This document shows, in pieces, positions 3,775-59,262 of a stretch of DNA of 64,000 nucleotides. The notes under the pieces are model-generated. The model was not told the DNA's origin and did not search any database. It was given only the letters and a program-made list of their open reading frames with translations. Positions within the stretch are counted from its first letter, which is position 1; each line of letters opens with the position of its first letter. Source of the DNA: an uncultured Anaerolineales bacterium (GTDB lineage: Bacteria; Chloroflexota; Anaerolineae; Epilineales; JAANWY01); contig CAZHMV010000007.1 of the NCBI GenBank assembly GCA_964532665.1, forward strand, positions 12,132 through 76,131. The letters are read 5' to 3'. Made by a program: the position numbers and the translations under genes.

Positions 3775-4599
3775 TCAGGCCCCGTTGCTGGAGAACAGGT
3801 AGCCAACCCCCCGCACATTGAGGATGTACCTGGGATCGGTGGGGTCAGGCTCCAGCTTCTTGCGCAGGCAGTGAACATAGTACTTGATCAGATTTCTGGC
3901 TTCCCATTCGTCCGCTTCGTACCCCTGGACTTCGCTTACAAGCTTGCGATACCCCTGAACCTCGCCGGCATGATTGACAAGGTGGGCCAGCAAGGCGAAT
4001 TCGGTTGGTGTGAGTCCGATCCACTGTCCATTCCGGCGAACCCGACGCCGGTGCTGGTCGATGATGATATCTCGTGGCTGCACGCTGCCATGACTGTGGG
4101 TACCATTTGCCCCATTGTGGGGGAGGGGCTTGACGTGATGGGCTGTGCTCGCCGGCTCCTCGTAGTCCAGGAGGTGCACGAGGTCTTTGAGTCTTGTGAG
4201 CAAGAGCTTCTCTCGTCTGATGCGCTGCGTCTTGGCGATGCCCTGTTTCACACAGCGCTTCAGGTCCTCATTTCGGAGTGGCTTGATCAGATAGTCGTGC
4301 GCTCCGTAACGCAGCGCTATGACCGCAGAAGCTACAGTGGGGTGGGCTGTCACGATGACGACGGATGTCTCGGGGCAGATTCTTCGGGCTTGCTTCATCA
4401 GCTCAATCCGTGCCAGACCCTCTCCCCCCAAATCCAAAAGGATCAGGTCGCAGGGGGTTCGTTTCAGGGCGCTGGAGGCATCGGTGCAGGCGTGAACGTT
4501 ATCGACGTGGTAGCTCTCTCTGCTTAGTACCTCGTGCAGTGCGGTGGCGATTTCACCATCGCCATCTACGACCAGGATACGACCTTTGTCCGATAACAT
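3775..4599 (-). CDS. OmpR-family response regulator (REC + winged-helix trans_reg_C)
   Basis: Receiver motifs (ILVVDGD..., DLILLDL, KPL) and C-terminal 'LTPTEFALLAHL...RNLIKYYVHCLRKKLE...RGVGYLF'. Start set at ATG 4599 preceded by GGGAGAGAAGG; ORF track extends to 4704. Confidence 0.8.
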   Translation of the reverse strand: MLSDKGRILVVDGDGEIATALHEVLSRESYHVDNVHACTDASSALKRTPCDLILLDLGGEGLARIELMKQARRICPETSVVIVTAHPTVASAVIALRYGAHDYLIKPLRNEDLKRCVKQGIAKTQRIRREKLLLTRLKDLVHLLDYEEPASTAHHVKPLPHNGANGTHSHGSVQPRDIIIDQHRRRVRRNGQWIGLTPTEFALLAHLVNHAGEVQGYRKLVSEVQGYEADEWEARNLIKYYVHCLRKKLEPDPTDPRYILNVRGVGYLFSSNGA

Positions 4600-7535: not shown

Positions 7536-9170
7536 TCATTCGCCTGGCCCGATCGACCTCATGACCGCCGGCAGGTAAAGCTGCACGCCGGGCGTTGTCG
7601 TCGCCGTGGGGGACGGCGAGACGGTGGCGGCAGGCGTGGCAGTCGGTGATTGGCCGGTAGCGGTTGGTGTGGGTGTCGCCGGCCCTGGCGGGGGACCTAA
7701 CTGGAGCCGGCCCCATCCATACTCATTGTCGGGGCCGGGTTGGCCCAGGTCAAGTGCGCGTGCTTTCAGAAAGGCCACGATCTCTTCGGGGGTGAAGGAC
7801 GGGAAGGCAGACTTGACCAGGGCGGCTGCGCCGGCCACGTGCGCTGCTGCTACGCCGGACCCGCAGGCACCCTTACCCCCCTCATCGCACGGCACACCGT
7901 CGCTCAGCCAATAGGTCACGGTACTGACACCATCGGGTGCTACCAGGTCTGGCCTGATACGCCCGTCATTCGTCGGTCCGCGAGAACTGAAAGCTTCCAA
8001 CTCGTCATCGCTCCAGTGGGTTGCCCCCACGACCAGCGCACCCTGGGCATCGGCGGGGGTCATGATGCTGCTGGTGATGACTTTGTGCTCCAGCTCAAAG
8101 CCAGGGTCCCAGCCCAGAAACAGCTCCACACGCGTCGATCGCGTCTCCTCCGGCGGCCGCGTGACGGCCACGTTGTACGTGCCGTCGTCCTGGACCGTCG
8201 CATCGATTTGCTCAACAGGATAATGGAAAGCCCCCGGAATCTGGCTGGAAATCCAATCCGGAGGCTCCTCCTCGAACGATAATGCCAGGTTGTAGTTAAT
8301 CTCGGCATTCTGGTCCCAACGATCATCCCATGTCAGCCCCACCGAGATGAGCTGATCTGCGATGACATTCGGGATGTCGTTCCAGTTGTCGCCAGGGGCA
8401 AAATCCAGGCAGCCGCCGCCGGACCCCGAGGGGTCCAATGCCGGCGGGCAGCCGTCCAGGTCCTGCCACTCGCCTTCCCAGTGACGTAGAGCTGCGTCGC
8501 CGGCGCCATTCACCCAGAGGATCCCGCTTCCCCTGGCCTGGTCGATCTTGGCTGTCAGGGGTCCCCGACCGTCTCCGCTGCTGCCCACCAACCAATTGCG
8601 GCCGTAGAGAATCACATCTACCTGCTGTTCCATCAGCCAATCCACCGCCCCTGTGAACTGATCCACTTCGCTGGGCAACGTGTTCACCAGGTAGAACTGA
8701 GCTTCCGGAGCCAGATCGAAGACAATTTCCGCCATGATGGTGCCATGATCGTCGCCGGCCCCGAACCCGCCCACCGTGCGGAACGTGTGCGTGATCACGC
8801 TGGCAGGGAGCTCCCCCTGTTGGATTCGCTCGTCGTAGCCCCGGAAACCCGCGTCCAGCACGGCGATTTTGACCCCCTGGCCACGCAGGCTGGCCTGCTG
8901 CCAGGCATCGGCCCCCATCTGCGAGACTCCCTCGCTGATGATCGCCAGCGGGGCGGCGGATGAGCGGCCCGCCGGCAACAGGAACCACATCGAGGAGAAT
9001 GCCCCCAGGGTGATGAGCAGGGCCAGGGCGGCCAGGGTGCGGGCGAACGCAGGCCAGCCCCGTACTGCGCGACGAACGATGATGGGCGAAGGAGGAAGGA
9101 CAAACCGTTGATCTCCGCCCTTCCTTTCTCGTTCTTCCTCCTGCCTCACGGGTCCGCGTTTGACAGTCAT
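7536..9170 (-). CDS. Subtilisin-like serine protease (peptidase S8) with N-terminal membrane anchor and C-terminal Pro/Thr-rich tail
   Basis: Asp (VKIAVLDAGF), His (DHGTIMAEIV) and Ser (GSGVAAAHVAGAAALV) catalytic blocks in subtilase order. Start chosen at ATG 9170 (MTVKRG..., GGGGGT upstream) so as not to overlap the DoxX gene; ORF track extends to 9446. Confidence 0.75.
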   Translation of the reverse strand: MTVKRGPVRQEEERERKGGDQRFVLPPSPIIVRRAVRGWPAFARTLAALALLITLGAFSSMWFLLPAGRSSAAPLAIISEGVSQMGADAWQQASLRGQGVKIAVLDAGFRGYDERIQQGELPASVITHTFRTVGGFGAGDDHGTIMAEIVFDLAPEAQFYLVNTLPSEVDQFTGAVDWLMEQQVDVILYGRNWLVGSSGDGRGPLTAKIDQARGSGILWVNGAGDAALRHWEGEWQDLDGCPPALDPSGSGGGCLDFAPGDNWNDIPNVIADQLISVGLTWDDRWDQNAEINYNLALSFEEEPPDWISSQIPGAFHYPVEQIDATVQDDGTYNVAVTRPPEETRSTRVELFLGWDPGFELEHKVITSSIMTPADAQGALVVGATHWSDDELEAFSSRGPTNDGRIRPDLVAPDGVSTVTYWLSDGVPCDEGGKGACGSGVAAAHVAGAAALVKSAFPSFTPEEIVAFLKARALDLGQPGPDNEYGWGRLQLGPPPGPATPTPTATGQSPTATPAATVSPSPTATTTPGVQLYLPAVMRSIGPGE

Positions 9171-17048: not shown

Positions 17049-18794
17049 TCAGGTCAACTGCAAAGTCACCGTTCCCTTGCTCCCGTCCACCTCAATGAGT
17101 TGACCGTCAACGATGCAATCCAGTACACCGGCCACGCCGACCACCGCCGGCAGCCCATACTCCCGCGCCACCACTGCGCCGTGCGACAGTTGGCCGCCAC
17201 GCTCCATCACCAACCCACTGACCTGCAAGAACAGCGGTGTCCAGGCCGGATCGGTGCTGCTGGTCACCAGGATACTCCCTGACGAGACACGCCGCCACGC
17301 ATCGCTCAAAGCTGTTGGCCCGCCGACCACCACTGCCGGCCCACGCACCCGTCCCGGGCTGGCTGCCAGGCCCGAGAAATGCTGCCCGGCTCTGGCGGTC
17401 GCAGGGCCTGTCTCGTCGAGTGGCGTCTCGCCCCGAAGAAATGCCGGATACGCTGTACCATGCAGGGCCTCGAACTGAGATCGCCGGCCCAGGATGAGAT
17501 TCCGGAGTTCCGGCACTTTCAGCCAGCCTCGAACAACTCCCGTGACCTCGTCCAGCGTCAGGAAGAAGATGTCATCGTCCTGCGCAATCACGCCCTCGGC
17601 GGCCAATGCCTGACCGATGCGCAGGAATGCTTGCCGCTTGGCGTGCATACTTTTCTGCCAGTAAAATCGCTGATCCTCACGCAAGACGGCGTAGCGCTGG
17701 GTGAACCACAGCAGCAGGCGAAAGATCCACCAGCGGATGGAGAAGCTGCCCAACCGCTGGCAAACCCGATGGACAGCAGAGAGCCGGCGTTGCTCCTGGG
17801 TCTGCTCTCGTGCCAGTGGTCCTTCTCCGCCAATGTCCAGCAGGCGTGTGACCGGTGCAAGAACCCCGGTCGGATCATCCGTGTATGCCGCGTGCCAGAG
17901 ATCGAGGCTCGGGGAGCGGTGGCCGTAGTGCGCCAGAAAGTCACGCAGTGCCCGTTGGAACCGCTGGCCGGCCTCTGTCGAACCGAGACCATCGAGGAAT
18001 GCACCGAAGCGTTCGGCCCGCAGGTGATCCAGTGATTCTGCATCCAATCCGGCGGCCCGCTGCGCCAGTCGCCACAACGCGATATCGGTTTCGGTTGACT
18101 TGTTGGGCAGGCCACTGATGAGCGCGGCACTGATCTCGCTGGCATCGCCGGCATCGACCCAGACCGACAACAGGCGTTGCAGCAGCTCATACAGCACATC
18201 GGCGTATGTGAGGCTCCAGCGGTGAAGCCGCAACAAGTCCAGGCTTGCGTCCATCAAGCGGTCGATCTGTTGCAGCAGTGCCGCCGGCCTGTCATCCGCC
18301 TCGATCTCTCGGAGACAGTCAGTAACCTGTCGGTCGAATCGGTGGGTGAATCGATCCCAGACCGCGTAGTTGAACGGATGCCACCCCGGCTCCGACATAA
18401 GGGTGCGGAGGACAGAGTAGAGAAACAGCATCGGATTTGGCGGCGGCACGGTGTGACGGAGCGAGACATCAGCATCGGGGAAATAGCGGCCGGCATCCCG
18501 AGGCACCAACGTGCGGGGGAAGACGCGGTACAACCGTTGGAAGACGCCTACGTTTGTGTAGATGTGACCGCGAAACAGCTTTGTGAGTGGGTATTCCTGT
18601 GGCAGTCGGTAGCCGATGAAGCTTAAAGGTTGGCGGAAGGCCGTGCATTCGACCAGCCGGCGCACGACCGACCATCCCAGGGGTGACACAACGTCCGGGA
18701 AACGCTCGTTAAAGAAGCCGGCGGTCCACAGGTAGTCGTCAGACGGTATGTGGGTCGTAAAGTATTCACCCTGATCGCGTGCGGATAATCGCAT
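17049..18794 (-). CDS. PEP-utilizing-enzyme mobile-domain protein (PEP synthase / rifampicin-phosphotransferase-like C-terminal swivel domain), N-terminal region uncharacterised
   Basis: C-terminal 'GSILVTSSTDPAWTPLFLQVSGLVMERGGQLSHGAVVAREYGLPAVVGV' matches the PEP-utilising phosphohistidine swivel domain. No ATP-grasp N-domain recognised. Confidence 0.6.
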   Translation of the reverse strand: MRLSARDQGEYFTTHIPSDDYLWTAGFFNERFPDVVSPLGWSVVRRLVECTAFRQPLSFIGYRLPQEYPLTKLFRGHIYTNVGVFQRLYRVFPRTLVPRDAGRYFPDADVSLRHTVPPPNPMLFLYSVLRTLMSEPGWHPFNYAVWDRFTHRFDRQVTDCLREIEADDRPAALLQQIDRLMDASLDLLRLHRWSLTYADVLYELLQRLLSVWVDAGDASEISAALISGLPNKSTETDIALWRLAQRAAGLDAESLDHLRAERFGAFLDGLGSTEAGQRFQRALRDFLAHYGHRSPSLDLWHAAYTDDPTGVLAPVTRLLDIGGEGPLAREQTQEQRRLSAVHRVCQRLGSFSIRWWIFRLLLWFTQRYAVLREDQRFYWQKSMHAKRQAFLRIGQALAAEGVIAQDDDIFFLTLDEVTGVVRGWLKVPELRNLILGRRSQFEALHGTAYPAFLRGETPLDETGPATARAGQHFSGLAASPGRVRGPAVVVGGPTALSDAWRRVSSGSILVTSSTDPAWTPLFLQVSGLVMERGGQLSHGAVVAREYGLPAVVGVAGVLDCIVDGQLIEVDGSKGTVTLQLT

Positions 18795-18857: not shown

Positions 18858-21335
18858 TCATATCTCACGCCCATTGGAGAAATCCGGCTGGCCCAACTGG
18901 TCAAAGGCCAGCGGGAAGTAATCCGAATGATCCAGTTGTGCGGCGATATCTTTCATGCGTTGCAAGTTCAGGTCAGCTTGTTGCGTGTCCTGCAGTTCCT
19001 GGGTGCGATAGATACCCTCACGCCATGCCAGGACCCGGAAGCGCTCCTCCAACAACGCCTGCCGATCCGCCTCGCTGTCGGCACCGCGATCGAGCCGGTC
19101 CAGCACCTCAAGTGCCTGATCATAGTAGTGCAACGCGGTTTCGCCTGCCAACGATTCGCGAGCCCTATGACCAGCTTGCTGCAAATACGTGAGTGCCTTG
19201 TCCCATACTCGTGCCGCCACATAGTGGTATGCCAGAGCTTCAACCACCTGGCCGGTCCCCTGACGGTAGCGATTCTCGATTGCCTCAGCGACCTGTCGAT
19301 GAATGACCTGCCGGCGCTGCGGGCTCAAGTCCTGGTAAATCGCCTGGCGAATCTTGTCGTGGGCAAACTCGAAGGTTCTTGATCCTGAGGAGTCGGCCTG
19401 GTGTTCGGTTACCGACCGACGAACGCCGCGTATCCCCTGCCAGGGAACGAGCCTGACCAGCCGGCGCTCCACCCAGATGTCGCTGCTGGCGTCTACCACG
19501 GCTCTATGTTCGGCGGCGGCATCCTGCAGCAATTCGGCATCGAATTGGGGACCGATCACCGCCGCCAGGGTCAGCAGGCGTCGCGCTGACGTGGGGAGCT
19601 GACTCACGCGCCGCATGATCAAGTCATGCAGATTCTCAGATGTGGGTGTGGCGAGCGTGGGCAGCGGGCCGGCAAGGGTCCATCGGTCTGCGTCAGAGGC
19701 CACCAGAATCCCCCGGTCGTACAGGAAGTTGACAAGCTCGACGATGGTCAGCGGCAGGCCGGCGCTTTCAAGATCCAGGAATCGCGCCAGGTTGCCAGCC
19801 TGCTCGTCACTTACGACTGCCGCTGCAACCTGCTGGATGTCGAGTGAGCTGAGCCGGTCCAGGGCCACACAATCGACCCACTGATGACGACTGAGCTGGC
19901 AGCGCAAAGGCAGCAGAGGATGCTCCGGGGCCAGTTCCCCAGGCTGAAACGCGGCAACAATCCAGATGGGGATACTGTTCAGCCGGCGAACCAGGTATTG
20001 CAGCAGATCAAGGCTGAAACGACTGGCCCAGTGCAGATCGTCCAGAAACAGGATGACCGAATTGACGGACTCGTCTGCACAATATGCCTGAGCCAGTTTT
20101 CTCAGGAACTGGGCAACAGCCTCGAAGAGCAGGTGATGGGCTCTGTTGTCTGAAAAGGGGGCCAGTTTGGGCAGATCTGGGCACGACGCGCGCAACTCGG
20201 GGACAAGCCGTGCCAGTTCGGCGAGCTCCTGGGACGACATGCCGGCCAATGCCTCTTGCACAGGACATGCTCGTTCTGTAATGGCCGCCCGCAGCGCGTC
20301 GGAAATGGGCTGAAAGCCGACCCTCGGGACTCGTTCGTAGCAGCGGCCGGATAGCACAAGTGTCGGTGACTCGGCGGCAATCTGTCGGATGAAGAGCTCA
20401 ATCAGGGAGGTCTTTCCAACACCGGCTTCACCTTCCACCAGGGTCAGACGGCCCCCTCCGTGTCGGGTCGCTTCCCAACTGCGGCGCAGACGCGCAGATG
20501 CTGCCTCCCGGCCAATGAAGGGAAAACGTGGGCCAGGCAGTGTGCTTTCTCCCTCCACAAACCTCGATGGCCATTTATCAGCCACAATAGCATGGTACAA
20601 AGCTGTGGTTTCCTCCAGCGGTTCCACACCCAGCTCGGTGTAGAGCAAGGCCCGGCAGTCTTCATACTGAGCCAGGGCGCGACTGCGCCGGCCCGAGAGG
20701 GCATACAGGCGAATCAGGTTGCGGTGTGCCTCTTCGAAGAGCGGGTCGATTTCCAGCAGCCGGCGACCGTACCGGATACCCTGGCGGTAGGCCCCGCTGG
20801 CAAGATAGTAATCCACCAACCTTCGTAGTGCCTGAATCGCCATCTCGCGGAGCCGTTCCTGTTCGTAGAGCAGCCAATGTTCAAAGTCTGGACTTCCCGT
20901 GATGAAGAAGCCGGCCATGAAATCACCCCGATACAGATCGCTGGCCTCGGCCAGGTGTTGGGGGGCGATCCCACCCTCGGCCAGTGTGCTCCGGCGTATG
21001 GCATCTTCGAAAGCCTTGACGTCGAGCCAGTAGTCGGTCTCGGGATTGAACTGCACATTCTGGTGGGTAGTCAAGATAGCTGGCGACCCCGTGTTGCTGT
21101 GGGGGAGCGTGGTTCGCAGATTGTATACTGCCTGCCGCAGATTGCGCCGCGCGGTGTCGTCGTCTCTATCCGGCCACAGAAGGCCGGCCAGGCGGTCGCG
21201 ACTTTGGTGGCTGACCTGATGAAGCAAGAGATAGGCCAGCAGCGCTCGCACCTTCTGCGATTCAAAGCCGCGGACCATCTGGTCGCCATGCCAGACCTCA
21301 AATCCGCCTAAGAGACGAATTTCTAACCTGCTCAA
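18858..21335 (-). CDS. SARP/AfsR-family regulator: OmpR-type wHTH + BTAD, NB-ARC/AAA P-loop NTPase, TPR repeats (STAND architecture); TTG start
   Basis: 825 aa; N-terminal 'LEIRLLGGFEVWHGDQ...VRALLAYLLLH' (SARP wHTH/BTAD), 'LTLVEGEAGVGKTSLIELF' Walker A, C-terminal TPR-like helices. TTG at 21335 preceded by GGAGAGGAG. Confidence 0.75.
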   Translation of the reverse strand: MSRLEIRLLGGFEVWHGDQMVRGFESQKVRALLAYLLLHQVSHQSRDRLAGLLWPDRDDDTARRNLRQAVYNLRTTLPHSNTGSPAILTTHQNVQFNPETDYWLDVKAFEDAIRRSTLAEGGIAPQHLAEASDLYRGDFMAGFFITGSPDFEHWLLYEQERLREMAIQALRRLVDYYLASGAYRQGIRYGRRLLEIDPLFEEAHRNLIRLYALSGRRSRALAQYEDCRALLYTELGVEPLEETTALYHAIVADKWPSRFVEGESTLPGPRFPFIGREAASARLRRSWEATRHGGGRLTLVEGEAGVGKTSLIELFIRQIAAESPTLVLSGRCYERVPRVGFQPISDALRAAITERACPVQEALAGMSSQELAELARLVPELRASCPDLPKLAPFSDNRAHHLLFEAVAQFLRKLAQAYCADESVNSVILFLDDLHWASRFSLDLLQYLVRRLNSIPIWIVAAFQPGELAPEHPLLPLRCQLSRHQWVDCVALDRLSSLDIQQVAAAVVSDEQAGNLARFLDLESAGLPLTIVELVNFLYDRGILVASDADRWTLAGPLPTLATPTSENLHDLIMRRVSQLPTSARRLLTLAAVIGPQFDAELLQDAAAEHRAVVDASSDIWVERRLVRLVPWQGIRGVRRSVTEHQADSSGSRTFEFAHDKIRQAIYQDLSPQRRQVIHRQVAEAIENRYRQGTGQVVEALAYHYVAARVWDKALTYLQQAGHRARESLAGETALHYYDQALEVLDRLDRGADSEADRQALLEERFRVLAWREGIYRTQELQDTQQADLNLQRMKDIAAQLDHSDYFPLAFDQLGQPDFSNGREI

Positions 21336-21415
21336 GGTGTTCTCCTCTCCCGATACTACACCCGGCGCAGCTTGTGAGCCAGCATCATCTGCACGTATGT
21401 GCCCTTATGCTTGCC

Positions 21416-21433
21416 CTACTACAATAATAGTAG
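21416..21433. promoter_or_regulatory. Perfect 6-6-6 inverted repeat CTACTA-CAATAA-TAGTAG in the regulator's upstream region (candidate operator)
   Basis: Read directly; about 80-100 nt upstream of the TTG start of the SARP regulator gene in an AT-rich segment. Confidence 0.35.
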
Positions 21434-21829
21434 CACAAACTTACAAATTGTGTTACGTGAACGGTTGCGTTTCCCGCGACTCTGCGCACCGAACAACACA
21501 ACGCCTTAATTATACATGAATACCAGGCTTTGCCGGTCTCCCTATATGAATTTCCGATAAAAGTGCGCTGAAAGAATGCACAGTAGAGCGTCACGCCGTT
21601 TCATTCCTGCTCCGCTTCTGGCTGGAGCCCAGGGAGATTGAAGATGGTATAGCCCCGATGCGCGGGTACATCTGGCATCTGCAGACCAGTAACGTGAATT
21701 TTTTCATACGATCCGTTGATCAAAAATGTACGCGCCCGGGCGTCACTGCATGTTGTATTAACGGCCATCACAAAACACAACATCTAGGGGACTAAATATG
21801 GCTTATCGTGCACCACCTGCCCGGCCTTC

Positions 21830-21858
21830 TTGTGCTAGCTTGATTTCCGTGCTATAAT
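21830..21858 (+). promoter_or_regulatory. Consensus-like sigma70 promoter TTGTGC-N17-TATAAT driving an approx 330-nt leader before the wHTH gene
   Basis: ttgtgc(21830-35) tagcttgatttccgtgc tataat(21853-58). Confidence 0.55.
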
Positions 21859-22187
21859 AGGAGCCGGATTTGCCGGGCTGTGCTGACCCGCATTCACCTG
21901 CCTTGCCTCAGATTTGCTTCAAGAACCGAGCGAGACCGGACCCGCCACCTGGATGGTATAGCGGGACTATCGATTCATCTCCATAAGCAGACATCATCAC
22001 TCGTGAACAAGGTGCATGAGAACCACCGAGGCCCACACTAGATAGCGGCGGGCTGGGAACTGAGGCTCCATCCAGCTCACACCATGCTCTACCCGAGACG
22101 GTAGTCTGTGCCCGATCCTCTGCGAACCGACGTGTGAGTGGATTTCTAAAAACACCTTGAACACCGACTTTATAGCAAGGACCTTGG

Positions 22188-22562
22188 ATGGCCGACCGGA
22201 AAAACTCCGCCGACCGCAGTAAGACTGAGAATGAGAACCGCCTGGAGTGTGCTGACCTCGTACTCGACCTGTCTACTCGCCACTTGACGAAAGGTGATGG
22301 CCGACCTCAGCGCCTGACGCCGAAAGAGTGCCGCTTGCTTGCCACTTTCATCCGCAATCGCGGACAGGTTCTGAGCCGCGAGTTCCTGATGCAGGAGGTA
22401 TGGGAGACAGAGTACTATGGAGATATGCGCACCCTGGAAGTGCACGTGAGCTGGCTGCGTGCCAAGATCGAGGACGACCGGTCCAATCCTCGCTATCTAC
22501 ATACCGTGCGCGGGGTAGGATACTGGTTCGAACCCAACCAACGGAGTGTAGGTGAGTCCTAG
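22188..22562 (+). CDS. Stand-alone OmpR/PhoB-type winged-helix DNA-binding protein (trans_reg_C only, no receiver)
   Basis: 124 aa; 'LTPKECRLLATFIRNRGQVLSREFLMQEVWE...TLEVHVSWLRAKIEDD...YLHTVRGVGYWF'. Confidence 0.75.
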   Translation: MADRKNSADRSKTENENRLECADLVLDLSTRHLTKGDGRPQRLTPKECRLLATFIRNRGQVLSREFLMQEVWETEYYGDMRTLEVHVSWLRAKIEDDRSNPRYLHTVRGVGYWFEPNQRSVGES

Positions 22563-22623
22563 GCTCAATACTTTTCAGATCGGCTCCCAGGCCCGGTCGC
22601 TGCGCGCGGTCTCTCGCCGGCTG

Positions 22624-33524: not shown

Positions 33525-35378
33525 CTAGCGGTACGGCGCTAGCTCCCACCACACACGGATACTGGCTTCGCCGGTGGCCTCGAAGTAGTCCACACGTACC
33601 TCGTGGGAGCCGGCCGTGAGTTCCACGTCTCCCCGGTGAGTCACCGGGCCGGTCTCGTACCACTCGTCAATGACCAGCCGGCCATCCACCCAGACCCGCG
33701 CCCCATCGTCGTGCTCGGCGAAGAAACGATACGTGGCTGTCTCAAAGCCACGGCGGTCCGTCCAGCGGACAGAGAAGTTGTCGGGTCCGATGTCATCGGG
33801 GCTGCCCTTCTCCCAGTCGAAGTCGATGTCCGCATCATCGCGCACGAAGGCCGGCGCACCTGACAGCGACCGGTTGTCGTAATAGGCGCCACGCCAGCCG
33901 GCGTATGCGTCCAGGTTCTCCCACCATACGCGCACTTCGGCCTTGCCGCCGGCCTCGTAGTATTCAATGCGAATCTCTCGACCCCCGCTGGAAAGATAGA
34001 TGTCCGCTGTGTAGTCCGTTTCGCCGGTCGAGGTATGCCACTCATCAATGATCAATTGGCCGCCTATCCACACCCGCACGCCATCGTCGGCCCGCGCGTG
34101 GAATCGGTACGTGCCGGCATCGAACGATGCAGTTCGAGTCCAGCGCGCTGAGAAGTTGTCCGGAGGAATCTGAGGGGCCGGGCTACTATCGGCCCAGGCG
34201 AAGTTGACATCGAGGTCATTTCGAACGACTGCGGGCGCACCCGAGAGGGACCGGTTGGCATAATATGCGCCCCGCCAGTTCGGGTATCGGCCCAGGTAGT
34301 GCCATTGAAACCGGATCGTTGCGTTCCCGCCGGCATCGAAATACTCCACGCGAATCTCCGTCGGCCCGTCGAGAACCCGCTGGAAGCCATAGGACGTCGT
34401 TGAGGTGACTTTCCACTCATCCAGCACCAATTGACCATCGATGAATACCCGAACGCCATCATCGACTTCGATATCGAATTGATACCCGCCGGACGGGAAG
34501 TCGAACTGGCGGGTCCAACGCACGGAGAAGGCGTCGGCCGGCACATCCGCCGCCGGTGTGCCCTGTCCCCAGTCGAAATCGATCACGCTATCGTCACGAA
34601 CCTGTACCGGGTCTCCTTCAACGTTGGGATTGTCATAATACTCACCGCGCCAGCCCTGGAACGCGGGTGTGGGCGTCGCGGTCGGTGGTGACGTTGGGGT
34701 AGGGCTGGGAGGCAGTGGCGAGGCGGTCTCCGTTGGGTTTACCAGATACAGTCGGGTAACTGCACGACGCCGGCCATCGGCACTCTGGGCAATGATGACG
34801 GCATCCATGCTGGTCAGGTTGGACGGCACCGTCAGCGTTGCCGCGAAGGTGCCGTCCCCGCCTGCCGTCCCCGCCCTGCTTGTGATCTCGGCCTGCTGGA
34901 TTGTCGAACCGATTCCGAGGTCAATCTCTTCTGCCGGCTGCCAGCCGGTTCCGTGAACCTCGACGGATGCCCCGGGCTCGGCCACCTCCTGTACGACGCG
35001 GATGGACGGGCCGGTGCTGAGCGTTGTCGGTGAGGGGGTCGTGGCAGGCTGCGAGGTGGCGCTTGGGAGCGGTGTGGCCGGCCGGGGGCCAACGCTGGCC
35101 GGCGTGCGTGTACGTCGGTAGGCTTCCACCATGGCGGTCAGCGTGGCCCCCGGCGGCGGTGTCGGGAGGATCACCGTCGCGGTGGCTCCTGTGATTGTCG
35201 GTGCTGGCGGGACGGTCGGCGTCTGCTGTGTTCTGACTATCTGGCAACCCGCACTCATCAGCACGAGCAGGACCAGGGTCAGGGCGCGTAGAATAGGGGC
35301 CAAGGGATGGAAGCGGCAGAACGGAGAATGGAGAAAAGTGGCGTGCATGATGCGGGCCTCCTCTGCGGCGCAAGACAC
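33525..35378 (-). CDS. Secreted protein with four tandem PA14 domains and PT-rich linker
   Basis: 617 aa; signal/TM, then four repeats of 'GWRG(E/A)YY(D/A)N..L.G.P...R.D..IDF.W..GSP......FSVRWT...F..G.Y.F....DDG.RV.IDG.L(V/I)(L/I)DEW'. Confidence 0.75.
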   Translation of the reverse strand: MSCAAEEARIMHATFLHSPFCRFHPLAPILRALTLVLLVLMSAGCQIVRTQQTPTVPPAPTITGATATVILPTPPPGATLTAMVEAYRRTRTPASVGPRPATPLPSATSQPATTPSPTTLSTGPSIRVVQEVAEPGASVEVHGTGWQPAEEIDLGIGSTIQQAEITSRAGTAGGDGTFAATLTVPSNLTSMDAVIIAQSADGRRRAVTRLYLVNPTETASPLPPSPTPTSPPTATPTPAFQGWRGEYYDNPNVEGDPVQVRDDSVIDFDWGQGTPAADVPADAFSVRWTRQFDFPSGGYQFDIEVDDGVRVFIDGQLVLDEWKVTSTTSYGFQRVLDGPTEIRVEYFDAGGNATIRFQWHYLGRYPNWRGAYYANRSLSGAPAVVRNDLDVNFAWADSSPAPQIPPDNFSARWTRTASFDAGTYRFHARADDGVRVWIGGQLIIDEWHTSTGETDYTADIYLSSGGREIRIEYYEAGGKAEVRVWWENLDAYAGWRGAYYDNRSLSGAPAFVRDDADIDFDWEKGSPDDIGPDNFSVRWTDRRGFETATYRFFAEHDDGARVWVDGRLVIDEWYETGPVTHRGDVELTAGSHEVRVDYFEATGEASIRVWWELAPYR

Positions 35379-35489
35379 TGCAATTCCTTTCTCCTCTTTC
35401 CAGCCTTTTTTCGCCGAGGGTGCAGCGCTTCCCAGCGTGTTCGGCGACTTCGACGGTTTCTGTTATCAGTACTTGGGAGAACTCAACGC

Positions 35490-35575
35490 TAACCCTCCCG
35501 TAGGTTATCGATTAGACGTCAAGATCGGCTTGGAGCGTATGTTGCATAACATAATCAAAACCTGCGGGAGGGTGG
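35490..35575. repeat. Family B element (TAACCCTCCCGTAGGTT ... AACCTGCGGGAGGGTGG) with 53-nt unique core
   Basis: Read directly in the AT-richer gap upstream of the PA14 gene. Confidence 0.7.
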
Positions 35576-35707
35576 TCAAAAGAAATTCCCAAGTATTGAT
35601 TATACCATATCATCTTGATGCCAACAAAGAAGCCGGCCATTCAGCCGGCTCATACTCCATGTCTTGCCCACGACGGGGGCAGGTTATGACGCTCTCAGCG
35701 GCGGCAA

Positions 35708-36037
35708 CTATTCTTTTATCATGGTGTACAGGATCTGGTTGCCGGCAAAGAACTCAACATCGGCCACGCCGTAGCCTTCATTGAGAAGATCTGCCAGCGC
35801 TTGAGCGCAGTCGGTTCTCAAGCTGACCGAAGATGCTCCGGTGCTGCTACTGATACGTTCAACAGAAAGGCCATCCTGAAGGCGTCCCAACGGGATACAC
35901 GTGAAGATCACCGCTTTTGTGCTTCCCGGGTCCTCCGTCGATTGAGCGTAGATGTTATTCCCATGTCCTGTGCTGCTCACGAGCAAAACCAACACCACAA
36001 GGAGAACGGCCAGAAAAAGCCCACCAATCCTCTTCAC
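35708..36037 (-). CDS. Small secreted hypothetical protein
   Basis: 109 aa, N-terminal signal peptide LFLAVLLVVLVLLVSS. No recognisable domain. Confidence 0.4.
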   Translation of the reverse strand: MKRIGGLFLAVLLVVLVLLVSSTGHGNNIYAQSTEDPGSTKAVIFTCIPLGRLQDGLSVERISSSTGASSVSLRTDCAQALADLLNEGYGVADVEFFAGNQILYTMIKE

Positions 36038-45631: not shown

Positions 45632-45649
45632 CCCTTTCGGATCGCCGAT

Positions 45650-46171
45650 CTAGCCTTGAACTCGGGCGGTCTCTGCTGCCAGCGCTTGCGCTTTTGCCTG
45701 CAGGGCGATGGCAACGGCCGGCGGTACCAGTGGCGAGACGTCCCCGCCGAGTAGAGCGACCTCTTTCACAAGGCTTGAGCTAAGGAATGCGTGCTCCGGG
45801 CTTGCCATCAGGCAGACAGTTTCAATGTCAGGCGTCAATTGTCGATTCATGTGGGCCATCTTGAACTCGTTCTCGAAATCTGATACGACGCGTAGCCCAC
45901 GGATGAGAACTCTTGCGCCTTGCAAACGTGCGTATGTGACCGTCAAACCACTATATGCATCTACGCGCACGTTGTTGAGATGTGAGACGGCGGCCGCTAC
46001 CATGTTCATGCGTTCTGCGGTTGAAAATAGTGGATTCTTGATGGGATGATCATGATCAAAAACGGCCATGATGACTTCGTCGAAAAGAGCGGCGGCCCGT
46101 TCGGCAATGTCTATGTGGCCGTTGGTGATCGGGTCGAAGGTTGCCGGAAAGACTGCGGTTATCATCTTCAT
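45650..46171 (-). CDS. coaD: Phosphopantetheine adenylyltransferase
   Basis: 'AVFPATFDPITNGHIDIAERAA', 'GLRVVSDFENEFKMAHMN' (PPAT motifs). Confidence 0.9.
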   Translation of the reverse strand: MKMITAVFPATFDPITNGHIDIAERAAALFDEVIMAVFDHDHPIKNPLFSTAERMNMVAAAVSHLNNVRVDAYSGLTVTYARLQGARVLIRGLRVVSDFENEFKMAHMNRQLTPDIETVCLMASPEHAFLSSSLVKEVALLGGDVSPLVPPAVAIALQAKAQALAAETARVQG

Positions 46172-46186
46172 TCGCTTGTTTCAGTT

Positions 46187-48838
46187 TCAGCTTAAGTCGC
46201 CTTCACCATGCCAGAACTCGTTAACGCGTTCGACCAGTAAGGCGTTTTCCGATGCAGACAGGTCGGGGTCGCGCCGAAAGATCTCCATGGCCTCTGCCCG
46301 GGCCGTCTCCAGGATGTGGACATCGCTGAGTTTGGCTGCTTTCAAATCCGGCAGGCCACTCTGGCGTGTGCCGAAGAACTCGCCAGGGCCGCGCAGTTTG
46401 AGGTCTTCTTCGGCCAGGCGGAAACCGTCCTGGGTGCTCTCCACAACGTCGAGCCGGGCCTGGGCACTCCGCGAGGGTGAGTCGGCCAGCAGCAGGCAGT
46501 AGGATTGGTGCTCACCCCGGCCGACGCGGCCCCGGAACTGGTGAAGTTGGGCCAGCCCAAACCGGTCCGCTCCCTCAATGACCATCACCGTGGCATTGGG
46601 GACGTCGATGCCGACCTCGACGACGGATGTGGATACCAGGATGTCCAGCTCGCCGGCCCGGAACTGTGCCATGACCGCTTCTTTTTCCGCATTTTTCAGC
46701 CGGCCGTGCATCAGGCCCAGCCTCAGGTTCGGGAAGACTTCTTTTTGCAGTCGCTCGTATTCCTCGGTGGCGGCCTTGGCCGCGATCTTGTCCGATGCCT
46801 CGATGAGTGGGCAGATGATGAAAGCTTGCCGGCCCTTTTCGATTTGTGACCGGACGAACTGGTACGCTCGCTCGCGCTCCCGGGGGAGCACCTTGCGTGT
46901 GCGGATGGTTTGCCGGCCTGGTGGCAGCTCGTCAATCACCGAGATGTCCAGGTCGCCGTACACCGTCAGCGCCAGCGTGCGGGGGATTGGCGTGGCGGTC
47001 ATGACCAGCACGTGCGGGGCATAACCCCTCGATACGCCGGCGCCTGCTCGGGACAGGCCCTTCTGCCGCAACGCAGCCCGCTGGCCAACTCCGAATCGAT
47101 GCTGCTCGTCGATGACGACGAAGGCCAGGTCCTTGAATTCCACACCCTCCTGGATCAGAGCGTGGGTCCCGATGACAATGTCAACCTCGCCGGACGCAAT
47201 TTCGTCATAGATGGCGTCCTTTTCCGATTTCGTCAGGCTACCTGTCAGTAGCCGGACTGTGAATCGGGAGTTGCGAATTGCGAATTGCGAAGGGCGTTTG
47301 TCAGTCGTCGTTTGTTGTTCGTCGGCGAGGGAAGCGAGCAGGTTCGTCACATTGCGATAGTGCTGCTCGGCCAGAATCTCCGTGGGTGCCATCATCGCTG
47401 CCTGAGCGCGGTTGGCTACGGTCATGAGCATGGCGACGACGGCCACGACCGTTTTGCCGGATCCGACGTCACCTTGCAGGAGCCGGCTCATGGGGCGCTT
47501 GCGTGTCAGGTCCCGCAGGATGTCGTTCAACACGCGGCCCTGGGCTCGGGTCAGCTTGAACGGAAGCGTCTCCAGAATGGATTGCAGCATGTCGCGCGGG
47601 ATGTCCATCGGCCGGCCGGTTTCTTGCTGCCAGATACGCCGCTGCCGGAGCACGCCAAGCTGGATGAGCAAGAATTCGTCGAAGCTGAGCCGGCGTCGTG
47701 CCTCCTTTAAGGTGTCCCAGTTGTCAGGGAAGTGGATCTGGTACATCGCTTCGTCGATGGGAAGCAGGTTTTCTCGCTGTCGGACGTGCTCGGGGAGGTA
47801 CTCCTGGAGGGCGCCGGCCCATCCATCGACAACGCGGCTCATGAGGCGGCGCATCCAGCGCGCGCTGATGCCTTTGGTCAACGGGTATACGGGCACCAGC
47901 CGGGCGGTGTGTACCAGCTTCTGTTCCAGCGGCTCCCATTCGGGTGCCTGGAAGGTCAGCCGGCCCAGGTACTTCTCGACTCGCCCGCTCAGGACGATCT
48001 TGCGGCCGGGCCGCAGTTGCCGGACAAGGTACGGTTGATTGAACCAGGTGGCCTCGATGGTCCCGGTTGCGTCGGAGAAAATCGCGGTGGTGATGCTCTG
48101 TCCGCTCCGCGTGCGGCGGTTGTTGCATTCCCAGACGGTGCCGACAATCGTCACTTCCTCGCCATATTCGAGTTGGTTTATGGTCTTGAGTGCGCTGAAG
48201 TCGTCGTAGCGCCGGGGGAAGAGGTATAACAGGTCTTCCACGGTTCGCACGCCCAGCCGGCCCAGTCGCCGACGATAGGTGTCGCTGATTCCTTGCAGGT
48301 TTTCCACAGGCGTGTTGAGGTCCAGATCGGCTCGCGGTTGCCGGCGCCGCCCGCGCGGGGTGCTCCGTGCTCTGTCCTGAGCTTGTTGCAGAGCTTGCTG
48401 AGGATCAGTCTGATCGACCTGCTCTTGAACCTGCGCGGGCGGAGGAGGTGTCGGCTGCTGCGGTTGGGCGCGTGGTGGCCCCGTCCTCCTCGCCTGACGA
48501 TCTCTGGCTTTTGCATCTGTCTGGCGCGGAGCGCCGTCTGAAGAGTCCGAACTCTCCTCAGCAATCTGCAACTGCAGTACGCTGAGGTTGTGCAGTTGTT
48601 TCAAAGCTTCTCGCACGGTCGATTCGCGGCTCTCAATGTCCTTGTGCTCGTAGCCGCGCAGCAGCTCGCTGATGATGCGCACCTGACGTTGGGCGCGATC
48701 GTCGTCGATAGTCTCCAGGGCTTCCTGTTCCCAGCGGGCCACGAAGCGCCTGAGCCCACCGATCACGGCTCGATCTCGAAACCCCGTGTCTCGCTCCAGG
48801 TCCAGGACCTTGTTGAGTTTTTCTAATGCCGGCAACAT
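46187..48838 (-). CDS. recG: ATP-dependent DNA helicase RecG (long N-terminal extension)
   Basis: 883 aa; wedge domain, 'LLQGDVGSGKTVVA' Walker A, 'VIDEQHRFGV' DEQH box, 'TATPIPRTL', C-terminal TRG motif region. Contains an in-frame heptamer-repeat insertion (see repeat 47263-47330). Confidence 0.9.
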   Translation of the reverse strand: MLPALEKLNKVLDLERDTGFRDRAVIGGLRRFVARWEQEALETIDDDRAQRQVRIISELLRGYEHKDIESRESTVREALKQLHNLSVLQLQIAEESSDSSDGAPRQTDAKARDRQARRTGPPRAQPQQPTPPPPAQVQEQVDQTDPQQALQQAQDRARSTPRGRRRQPRADLDLNTPVENLQGISDTYRRRLGRLGVRTVEDLLYLFPRRYDDFSALKTINQLEYGEEVTIVGTVWECNNRRTRSGQSITTAIFSDATGTIEATWFNQPYLVRQLRPGRKIVLSGRVEKYLGRLTFQAPEWEPLEQKLVHTARLVPVYPLTKGISARWMRRLMSRVVDGWAGALQEYLPEHVRQRENLLPIDEAMYQIHFPDNWDTLKEARRRLSFDEFLLIQLGVLRQRRIWQQETGRPMDIPRDMLQSILETLPFKLTRAQGRVLNDILRDLTRKRPMSRLLQGDVGSGKTVVAVVAMLMTVANRAQAAMMAPTEILAEQHYRNVTNLLASLADEQQTTTDKRPSQFAIRNSRFTVRLLTGSLTKSEKDAIYDEIASGEVDIVIGTHALIQEGVEFKDLAFVVIDEQHRFGVGQRAALRQKGLSRAGAGVSRGYAPHVLVMTATPIPRTLALTVYGDLDISVIDELPPGRQTIRTRKVLPRERERAYQFVRSQIEKGRQAFIICPLIEASDKIAAKAATEEYERLQKEVFPNLRLGLMHGRLKNAEKEAVMAQFRAGELDILVSTSVVEVGIDVPNATVMVIEGADRFGLAQLHQFRGRVGRGEHQSYCLLLADSPSRSAQARLDVVESTQDGFRLAEEDLKLRGPGEFFGTRQSGLPDLKAAKLSDVHILETARAEAMEIFRRDPDLSASENALLVERVNEFWHGEGDLS
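47263..47330. repeat. Tandem heptamers TTGCGAA x3 followed by TCGTCGTTTGTTGTTCGTCG, lying in frame inside recG
   Basis: gttgcgaattgcgaattgcgaagggcgtttgtcagtcgtcgtttgttgttcgtcgg read directly; encodes ...DEQQTTTDKRPSQFAIRNSRF... between helicase motifs I and II, where E. coli RecG has a shorter loop (from memory). Confidence 0.5.
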
Positions 48839-57926: not shown

Positions 57927-58117
57927 TTTCAAACTTAGATGGCGCTTCACGCTTCCAGGCATCGAAACAGATGCCAGCGCCGCCCGTTTGAACAAGGGGT
58001 ACGAGGGTGCGGGAGAACGGGAGAGAGACCTGACAAACGAGAATCTTTTCTCCCCTGCTCCCATGCACGTTCGCACTCCTGCTCAGACGGAGCCCTGCCC
58101 CGGCGAAAGGGAAGACG

Positions 58118-59194
58118 ATGGACAACATATCGGAGCCGCCCCAGCGCTCAGGCGGTATTGACTTCGATCAAAGTGACGTCCGTGCTGAGGACCTCGTCGG
58201 ACGTGACAAGTTCGAATTCAACCTGCCCGAGATACCGCGTAAGGGTTGCTATGCCCAGTTATCCAAGAACATTAAGTTCGTTGTTTCTCTTGGCGTGCTG
58301 CTGCTCTTGATCTACGCTGTTTTCCAGCAGTTGAACCGGCCGAGTGTGTCGGAGCAGACGCCGACGCCGACGGCTGTGGAAACGGCGACGCCAACTGGAA
58401 CGCCAGAACCTTTAACAACGCCAACAGTAGAGGCCCAGGGGCCGTTGCCGGGGACACAGACACCGGAGCCCCCGTTCGGGCGAGCTACGTCGGTGGTCCG
58501 GCCAGAGACTCGGACGCCCGTGGTGGTTACGGCTACCTTGACGCCTGTCGTAGCCGCCTCGCCCACGACGCGACGTGTTGTCGCCACGGTCACGCCTGGA
58601 ACCATTGGGCCGTCTACGCCGGTCGTGCGGCCGCCGACGCCAACGCCACGACGGACCCCGACACCGGTGCCCACCACAGCGGTTCCGAGCCCGCGTCCGC
58701 TGCCGACGGTGACGCCGCGGCCACCAACGCCGACGCCGAATCCGTGCCTGTCGGCGGCTGTCCGTCTTGGGCCTGTTGCCAGGCTTGTGACGGAAGGGGA
58801 TACATTCACCGCCAGCGTGCTCATCTCTTGTGCGGTGAACCTGGCTGGCTACCAGATTGAATTGCGCTTTGATCCGGCTGTCGTGGTCGTCCGGGGTGTG
58901 GATAACGGCGGGTTCCTGGGCAGTGCCGGCGGGTCGGTGTTCGCCCCGGATCCAGCGATGGATAACAGTGCTGGCATAGCAACCATCAGTGCGATTGTGC
59001 TGCGGCCTGGACCGTATCCGAGTGGCTCGGGCACTCTGGCTTCCTTCAGTTTGAAGGCTGTTGGTCCGGGATCTACAGATCTGGACGTGGGTGTGAGCCT
59101 GTCGGACGTAAACGGAGAGTCGATACCGGTCAGTGTCACCGATGGCGCTGTCGTCGTCCAGCCGCAGGCCACGGCTGTGCCGAGTGAGCCGTAG
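58118..59194 (+). CDS. Membrane-anchored protein with long Pro/Thr-rich linker and C-terminal cohesin-like domain
   Basis: 358 aa; TM 'FVVSLGVLLLLIYAVF'; TPTPT linker; 'GDTFTASVLISCAVNLAGYQIELRFDPAVVVV' cohesin-type beta sandwich. Confidence 0.6.
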   Translation: MDNISEPPQRSGGIDFDQSDVRAEDLVGRDKFEFNLPEIPRKGCYAQLSKNIKFVVSLGVLLLLIYAVFQQLNRPSVSEQTPTPTAVETATPTGTPEPLTTPTVEAQGPLPGTQTPEPPFGRATSVVRPETRTPVVVTATLTPVVAASPTTRRVVATVTPGTIGPSTPVVRPPTPTPRRTPTPVPTTAVPSPRPLPTVTPRPPTPTPNPCLSAAVRLGPVARLVTEGDTFTASVLISCAVNLAGYQIELRFDPAVVVVRGVDNGGFLGSAGGSVFAPDPAMDNSAGIATISAIVLRPGPYPSGSGTLASFSLKAVGPGSTDLDVGVSLSDVNGESIPVSVTDGAVVVQPQATAVPSEP

Positions 59195-59239
59195 TCGATC
59201 TGACTGTAGATTGCCCATGGCCGACTGCGAGTCTCAGAT

Positions 59240-59262
59240 GGGGATCTGACGATCCCTTTTGA
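59240..59262 (+). terminator. Rho-independent terminator GGGGATC-tgac-GATCCC-TTTT
   Basis: Read directly after the cohesin-like gene. Confidence 0.5.

Follow-up and report, generated by a model that had tools for sequence, protein, structure and literature searches.

The OmpR sites at ompF and ompC and the pho boxes (11-bp periodicity) are phased arrays of upstream operator boxes. The control of OmpR-type regulators without a receiver is poorly understood. Here we delimit a clade-specific promoter, box and leader architecture for such a regulator, an orphan OmpR/PhoB-type winged helix-turn-helix (wHTH) gene of an uncultured Anaerolineae (Chloroflexota) lineage, the upstream partner of which in relatives belongs to the CT398/HP0958 family. 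In Helicobacter, the member of this family (FlgZ) stabilises RpoN (sigma-54) and binds the flaA mRNA (PMC3372290). The wHTH gene borders an 852-nt gap (21336-22187) within a 64-kb stretch of DNA, hereafter called the window; on the other side of the gap stands a SARP-type STAND regulator gene. An earlier reading of the same DNA, the original prediction, had described the gap as a non-coding island with a perfect palindrome and a leader that could encode an sRNA or a riboswitch-like attenuator, and had suggested that the flanking regulators look like a self-contained module. We consider it likely that the gap instead represents two unrelated upstream regions, fused by a genome rearrangement with a breakpoint near 21690. 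The island is an ordinary kind of object, consisting of promoter and operator DNA, a long 5' untranslated region (5'UTR) and a pseudogene remnant at a synteny break.

Results

Thirteen orthologous wHTH loci with 69-88% protein identity were collected. A scan of metagenomes for further orthologues yielded only one (L069), which restricts the power of covariation tests. In all relatives with upstream sequence on the contig, a rhomboid gene and a CT398_CC/Zn_ribbon_9 (DUF164) gene lie upstream of the wHTH gene (12/12; in L067 the rhomboid gene lies beyond the contig end), and most relatives carry yggT-proC-yggS-ylmD, or part of it, downstream. The window has this downstream set. Its left neighbours are non-orthologous to those of the relatives, and tblastn detected neither a rhomboid nor a CT398 gene, nor a remnant of either, in the gap or elsewhere in the 64 kb. 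No SARP gene was present in the fetched wHTH loci outside the window's species. The SARP orthologue of another locus, L128 (5001-7454 (+), 62% identity), has no wHTH gene within 5 kb, though it keeps its downstream neighbour, a PEP-utiliser / Rph-like gene (17049-18794 (-) in the window, 7595-8929 (+) in L128, 67% identity). The two homologies meet at 21688-21693: similarity to a small gene that accompanies SARP homologues ends after HLQTSN, at about 21690, exactly where similarity to the upstream DNA of the wHTH relatives begins with a conserved box, termed box A (alignment from 21689-21691). The joining of two upstream regions at this breakpoint would account for the unusual length of the stretch. 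Six metagenome contigs encode the exact 124-aa wHTH protein; the five distinct places shown come from five samples, and relatives of the protein occur in metagenome-assembled genomes of Anaerolineae or Chloroflexi. Across this region, five same-species contigs, each from a different sample, show 100% identity, which makes an assembly error unlikely; this identity is uninformative on population variation.

More distant Chloroflexota provide about 25 loci in which the wHTH gene directly follows a CT398 gene, at a distance of -4 to +13 nt where the start could be placed, in one case with an overlapping TAATG; the identity of the CT398 gene was confirmed by Pfam in four of these loci. This tight spacing points to an ancestral tight operon. 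Judged by gene order, CT398(DUF164) and the stand-alone wHTH gene are a conserved two-gene unit in distant Chloroflexota. In the literature searched, including PMC3372290, we found no mention of this unit, no link between CT398/DUF164 and OmpR-type wHTH proteins, and nothing directly relevant to stand-alone OmpR effector domains. The long spacer with its own promoter is a novelty of the window's clade, and the SARP adjacency a novelty of the window's species. The distant loci derive from metagenome-assembled genomes (MAGs) of Anaerolineae, Ardenticatenales and Caldilineae, with the wHTH match starting at 4001 or 1501 in most; they are L021, L024, L025, L028, L031, L032, L035, L037, L043, L046-L048, L052, L054, L071, L073, L075-L077, L079, L081, L083, L104, L105 and L109. 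Public annotations place minus-strand genes within the CT398-wHTH spacer of three loci (L060 1136-1672, L061 1686-1892, L001 9414-9596). These calls have no Pfam matches, are unconserved as peptides and are probably spurious.

Left of the breakpoint, the gap contains the remnant of the SARP-associated small protein gene (21586-21693 (+)). Its translation matches the 83-aa protein of L128, encoded divergently from the SARP orthologue at 4274-4525 (-), with 64% identity over 36 aa (BLASTP, E 1e-15). The family comprises five database members from Chloroflexota (P0241-P0245) of 72-91 aa, and its core, ERHVVSFLIRFWLEPRE...RGYIRHLQT, is present in the remnant, which retains 18 of the 18 family-invariant columns. 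Substitutions relative to L128 are distributed over codon positions 1, 2 and 3 as 11, 6 and 19, and 12 codons differ only synonymously; the block therefore evolved as coding sequence. Elsewhere, the small genes adjoin SARP homologues, as consecutive accessions and locus tags indicate (MBI3943430, 31, 32; MSP14257, 58, with EXR62_15035, 15040). No fewer than three Chloroflexota genomes besides that of the window encode the small protein beside a SARP-type STAND regulator. The gene order suggests that the SARP, PEP-utiliser and small protein genes form one unit. One genome carries a tandem pair of the small gene (HY326_10500 and 10505), and the extended family core reads ERHVVSFLIRFWLEPRE..RGYIRHLQTGEE.Y.S..EM..EYV.RQL.

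The copy in the window has neither the start nor the end of an intact gene, namely an in-frame start with a Shine-Dalgarno (SD) sequence and the C-terminal helix. No ATG, GTG or TTG occurs in its frame ahead of 21658, the sole nearby ATG (21576-78) is out of frame, and no SD is present, whereas the L128 copy carries GAGGGAG. The C-terminal third is replaced after HLQTSN, with loss of the conserved helix Y.S..EM..EYV.RQL; the open frame (21550-21795 (+), 81 codons) runs across the junction as ...TVERHAVSFLLRFWLEPREIEDGIAPMRGYIWHLQTSN|VNFFIRS.... On these sequence features, the small gene is a disabled remnant here. The label 'non-coding island' thus holds in that no convincing open reading frame (ORF) was found, but not for 21586-21693, which originates from a gene; a degraded gene remnant, which the original prediction itself had named as an outcome that would count against it, indeed occupies the left third of the island. 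Pfam, even at E<=10, recognised none of the gap's six ORFs (45-69 aa), a search that misses the remnant, as the small-protein family is itself without a Pfam match or model.

Right of the breakpoint, a sigma-70-type promoter is present at 21829-21858 (+). It consists of a -35 region CTTGTGC (TTGTGC at 21830-35), a 17-nt spacer and an extended -10 element TGcTATAAT (21850-58), and so has the geometry TTGnnn-17-TGnTATAAT. CTTG, TG and TATAAT are invariant in 13/13 aligned orthologues, which gives the common pattern CTTG-N16-GTGnTATAAT; L069 likewise carries this -35 and this extended -10 element. Across the 14 orthologous loci the promoter is invariant in position and nearly so in sequence, with TGnTATAAT located 166-389 nt ahead of the ATG. 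The consensus promoter that had been placed 330 nt upstream of the 124-aa gene corresponds to this element, which is conserved and lies about 320 nt upstream; however, its -35 hexamer matches the consensus at only 3/6 positions, and the promoter therefore goes unreported by a consensus scanner. Transcription is predicted to start near 21865.

Upstream of the promoter, the orthologue alignment revealed three boxes on the plus strand. Box A (AACGTGAATTTTTTCATACGAT, 21691-21712; in the orthologue alignment AACGTGAATTTTTYCATACGAT) has its centre about 165 nt ahead of the predicted start. It is present in 10/13 orthologous loci, once per locus and on a constant strand. Box A' (cACATnnTGtg) occupies 21746-21757, and box B (CACAACATCTAGGGG, consensus CACAACATGTAGGGG), at 21776-21790, is centred about 82 nt upstream of the start. 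The distance from box A' to box B is 28-30 nt in 13/13 loci, whereas box B and the -35 element are 49-52 nt apart in ten loci but 39-40 nt apart in the other three, a difference of one helical turn; the spacing is thus near fixed, and the sequence between the boxes has diverged. We infer that boxes A, A' and B are sites of protein binding, held in phase along one DNA face. Although the window has lost the upstream CT398 gene, it retains an intact box A, which ties the boxes to the wHTH gene. A coding origin of boxes A-B was rejected for both strands, as reading frames are not kept and the peptide similarity mirrors the conserved DNA; a consensus RNA fold across them contains zero pairs. Further copies of box A, box B or a GCCTCGC repeat (see below) that would hint at a regulon were not found in the window beyond chance.

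The predicted start lies about 322 nt ahead of the ATG. Leaders of 150-390 nt are found in the orthologues, and a long leader is kept in all 14, so that the long leader which the original prediction had noted is a conserved trait. The primary sequence of its 5' module (21865-21986 (+), defined by nhmmer and alignments) is conserved: nhmmer matches the orthologues with E values of 1e-12 to 1e-29, but detected the module neither in more than 100 paralogue loci nor elsewhere in the window. The module includes the motifs GCCT/GCCTCA (21900-10), TGCTTCA (21915-21), TGCTTCAAGA and CTATCGATTCATCTCC (21967-82), together with a possible hairpin CCCGC/GCGGG (21941-45 and 21961-65). In most relatives GCCTCGC is directly repeated with a period of 11-12 nt (11 nt in 4/5 measured), and the first copy is deleted in the window. 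The variable middle of the leader (21987-22140 (+)) is absent from three orthologues, in which about 170 nt are missing; it holds the motif ATGAGAACCACCGAGGCCC, which forms an upstream ORF (uORF) of 9-10 codons in 4/10 long leaders. This uORF, at 22016-22045 in the window and also in the leaders of L016, L017 and L006, reads M-R-x-A/T-E/K-A-x-T... and is preceded by AAGGTG. A conserved uORF (M-R-N-A-K/E-A-x-T...) was not accepted, given its occurrence in only 4/10 long leaders, the loss of frame or start in L060 and L010 and the lack of a third-position bias. The SD region of the wHTH gene, GCAAGGA (22175-22181), shows 86% column conservation. In minimum free energy (MFE) and consensus folds, the 5' end of the leader (21864-21878, CCGGAUUUGCCGGGC) can pair with the first codons of the gene (22188-22199, AUGGCCGACCGG); both sides of this pairing are invariant and hence beyond the reach of covariation.

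Structure in the leader was assessed at the levels of family, fold and covariation. The Rfam covariance-model scan that the original prediction had proposed returned zero matches at the gathering threshold in the window and the 13 orthologous loci, and none emerged when the window was also scanned at E<=10 that came near a family: the best sub-threshold match in the window, msiK, lay on the wrong strand and scored 13.8 bits, where the family threshold is 33. RNAalifold gave -4.86 kcal/mol for the 5' module and -1.13 kcal/mol for the whole leader, and in neither case was the covariation term favourable. For the named helices (P1', P2), the covariation score was 0.200 compared with 0.182 in shuffles, and 124/500 column shuffles reached it. 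The MFE z-score was +0.51 for the leader of the window and -3.4 to +1.35 over the 14 leaders (mean about -0.5), with 11/14 between -1.6 and +1.35. An SD-sequestering hairpin (CCUUG/CAAGG), for which L065 and L067 seemed by eye to carry compensatory variants, was rejected, since SD pairing did not exceed that of shuffled controls in the 14 leaders. The leader is best described as a long, conserved and weakly structured UTR, and the idea of a riboswitch-like attenuator finds no backing in family match, consensus fold, significant covariation or z-score, the last being near zero.

The left flank of the gap is the SARP-type STAND regulator gene (18858-21335 (-), 825 aa). Its product has the OmpR-type wHTH and BTAD domains of the SARP class, here with an AAA_16 NTPase; Pfam reports BTAD, AAA_16, AAA_22 and a weak Trans_reg_C. 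The TTG start at 21335 is supported by a strong SD, GGAGAGGAG, read from the sequence at 21342-21350 (-), 6 nt ahead of the TTG, and by the canonical N-terminus MSRLEIRLLGGFEV. The earlier description as a TTG-initiated SARP-NB-ARC-TPR regulator is therefore borne out for the SARP/STAND architecture and the start codon, but no TPR domain was found by Pfam at E<=0.001. SARP orthologues in Chloroflexota show 59-64% identity, and homologues number thousands. The adjoining region (21351-21549 (-)), delimited by sequence reading only, is lineage-specific: it has no counterpart in any fetched locus, including the wHTH-orthologous loci and the SARP upstream region of L128, and the left part of the gap as a whole has zero nucleotide similarity to any wHTH-locus relative. 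The SARP promoter and 5'UTR presumably lie within 21351-21549. An unverified candidate promoter on the minus strand consists of GTAACA (21456-51), an 18-nt spacer and TGcTACTAT (-10 at 21432-27), and an unverified alternative -10 element is TATAAT at 21514-21509 (-).

The first of these -10 candidates overlaps the inverted repeat CTACTA-N6-TAGTAG (21416-21433), which had been described as a perfect 6-6-6 palindrome. The 6-bp arms exist, but complementarity is limited to them, the centre being non-palindromic. Shuffled versions of the gap contain on average 2.4 such repeats (arm 6, spacer 0-10), with at least one in 85% of shuffles, and 17% of shuffles contain one with a spacer of exactly 6. 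No counterpart was found upstream of the L128 SARP orthologue. A protein-bound palindromic operator at this position was accordingly rejected, the repeat occurring at chance level and being unconserved in L128.

The right flank, the wHTH gene (22188-22562 (+)), starts with ATG at 22188 and encodes 124 aa with Trans_reg_C as the only Pfam domain (9.7e-29), which agrees with its description as a receiver-less winged helix. Six-frame translation revealed no receiver remnant upstream of it. The protein belongs to a stand-alone family: the best 120 of 299 homologues are nearly all 95-141 aa long (three of 160-163 aa) and contain Trans_reg_C only. A terminator-like hairpin with a T-rich tail (22553-22577 (+), from a consensus scan only) overlaps the stop codon. 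Three loci, L023, L026 and L027, from the same MAGs as L019, L016 and L018, hold a second stand-alone wHTH paralogue of about 55-63% identity; these paralogue loci lack the conserved boxes, promoter and leader.

The gap was confirmed as it had been described with regard to its boundaries, flanking genes and low GC, and as the largest stretch of the window without a convincing ORF in a crude map of ORFs and third-position GC (GC3). One larger apparent gap (58077-59258) is covered by an ORF of 358 aa (58118-59194 (+)) with a long Pro/Thr-rich linker, which the GC3 filter had counted as non-coding. The gap has a GC content of 0.518 compared with 0.607 for the whole window, and 21401-21800 is the lowest-GC 400-nt stretch of the 64 kb (0.477, about 3.6 sd under the mean). 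We attribute the low GC of the island to promoter and operator DNA together with decaying gene sequence. Further ORF-poor and/or low-GC stretches of the window are 45632-46186, 35379-35707 and 385-1098, with a GC of 0.505-0.515 around 45801-46250 and 35351-35900. A scan for tRNA and tmRNA genes found none.

Discussion

Based on the two homologies that meet near 21690, we propose the following course of events as likely. The DNA to the left of the breakpoint would have travelled with the SARP gene and comprise its upstream region and the 5' two-thirds of the small divergent gene, which normally accompanies SARP homologues in Chloroflexota and is disabled here, with an out-of-frame start, no SD and a replaced C-terminus. 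To the right, the orphan wHTH gene would keep its native cis-regulatory DNA, in which boxes A, A' and B at fixed spacing precede a strong extended -10 sigma-70-type promoter. From the predicted start, a monocistronic mRNA of about 0.7 kb with a 5'UTR of about 320 nt would be transcribed, ending at the terminator-like hairpin. Since the protein has no receiver domain, control by phosphorylation is impossible, and control must act on the expression level or through a partner protein. We suggest that control is mainly transcriptional, via the boxes and possibly via the GCCTCGC direct repeats just past the start, and that boxes and repeats could be autoregulatory sites for the wHTH protein itself. 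The apparent pairing of a SARP regulator with an orphan wHTH protein and a riboswitch-like leader would then be an accident of rearrangement, which corrects the annotation logic at this locus. The real conserved partners are CT398/DUF164 for the wHTH protein, and the 72-91 aa protein and the PEP-utiliser for SARP; both pairings offer leads for uncultured Chloroflexota.

Several observations weigh against this reading. None of the boxes, which are putative sites, recurs a second time in the window or in any locus fetched, and the SARP promoter candidates are unverified; the transcription start, the length of the UTR and the terminator are likewise predicted. The remnant retains every one of its 18 invariant residues, and may be recently inactivated or still be translated from a non-canonical start. 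The covariation tests covered 9-14 leaders and have low power, so that a small structured element could escape them, and the leader of L065 folds well past its shuffles (z = -3.4).

The last two points bear on the alternative that the leader of about 320 nt is a new cis-regulatory RNA of the riboswitch or attenuator type, controlling translation or elongation of the wHTH mRNA. It would explain why leaders of 150-390 nt are retained in 14/14 orthologues and why the 5' module is conserved in primary sequence, and it could draw on the few two-sided changes in the hairpin CCCGCCAC/GTGGCGGG as well as on L065. Rfam, however, is empty even at E<=10, the consensus energies of -4.9 and -1.1 kcal/mol lack a favourable covariation term, 124/500 shuffles reached the covariation score, the mean z is about -0.5, the SD is not preferentially sequestered, and three orthologues do without half of the leader; we regard this alternative as unlikely. 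A related and somewhat less probable scenario starts from the ancestral CT398-wHTH operon, which in this Anaerolineae clade would have been split by a spacer of 350-780 nt that gained promoter and leader. The 5' module of the leader, with the GCCUCGC repeats, the hairpin and CUAUCGAUUCAUCUCC, would be a new RNA element to which a protein binds; a candidate binder is a zinc-ribbon protein of the CT398 type, the Helicobacter relative of which binds an mRNA. If true, this RNA would place a receiver-less OmpR-type regulator under post-transcriptional control, and the CT398-leader circuit would have been uncoupled naturally in the genome of the window, which has lost the CT398 gene next to the wHTH gene. 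It is very improbable that the 5' module is a separate small RNA of about 120 nt made from the conserved promoter, with the wHTH gene being read from elsewhere. No transcribed block is better conserved than the module, which the SD region follows almost directly in three orthologues, but the consensus scan shows no terminator-like site between module and gene, no conserved second promoter lies nearer the ATG, and the module is confined to the region upstream of the wHTH gene.

Two further alternatives concern the left part of the gap and its neighbour. The small gene might be alive and encode a chimeric protein from a non-canonical start, with the N-terminal core joined to a new tail that runs through boxes A-B (21550-21795). 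The 81-codon open frame, the complete set of 18 family-invariant residues and the coding-like substitution pattern are compatible with this possibility; yet the frame offers no ATG, GTG or TTG upstream of 21658 and no SD such as the GAGGGAG of L128, the conserved C-terminal helix is gone, and the new tail merely translates conserved non-coding boxes, which renders a chimeric protein doubtful, on a par with the CT398-bound leader. The SARP and wHTH genes are indeed adjacent and divergent in this lineage, in five identical contigs from five samples, as would be expected if they formed a self-contained regulatory module with the palindrome as shared operator. This adjacency, however, is absent in the 12/12 wHTH relatives with upstream sequence, which have rhomboid and CT398 genes and no SARP, and in L128, where SARP stands without wHTH; in other genomes the conserved partners differ between the two genes (CT398 for wHTH, the small protein and the PEP-utiliser for SARP), and the palindrome occurs at chance frequency. 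Gene order thus largely refutes the module, and we give it next to no credence. We therefore retain the fusion of two unrelated upstream regions as the likely origin of the gap.

Compared with known systems, the wHTH locus resembles the operator arrays of the OmpR family in having several short boxes at fixed spacing upstream of a sigma-70 promoter, in tolerating indels of one helical turn, and in the 7-nt direct repeat GCCTCGC of the relatives, which recurs at 11-12 nt. It differs from these arrays in the more distal position of its boxes (about -82, -112 and -165) and in the location of the GCCTCGC repeats downstream of the predicted start, with one copy deleted in the window. As with Rfam cis-regulatory leaders, a regulator gene is preceded here by a 5' leader that is long and conserved; unlike them, this leader shows no family match, consensus fold or significant covariation. 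The left-flank gene shares the Trans_reg_C, BTAD and NTPase architecture of SARP / AfsR-like STAND regulators, whereas its wHTH neighbour came about only through rearrangement and its conserved companions are the PEP-utiliser and the 72-91 aa protein. The CT398/HP0958 (FlgZ) family of DUF164 coiled-coil zinc-ribbon proteins, which provides the upstream partner of the wHTH gene in relatives, is missing from the 64-kb window. Finally, residues 17-117 of the wHTH protein align to its closest solved relatives, the effector domains of OmpR/PhoB regulators (WalR/VicR/YycF, RegX3, PhoP), with E values of about 1e-19; in contrast to these response regulators, it has no receiver and belongs to a family that stands alone in Anaerolineae and other Chloroflexota.

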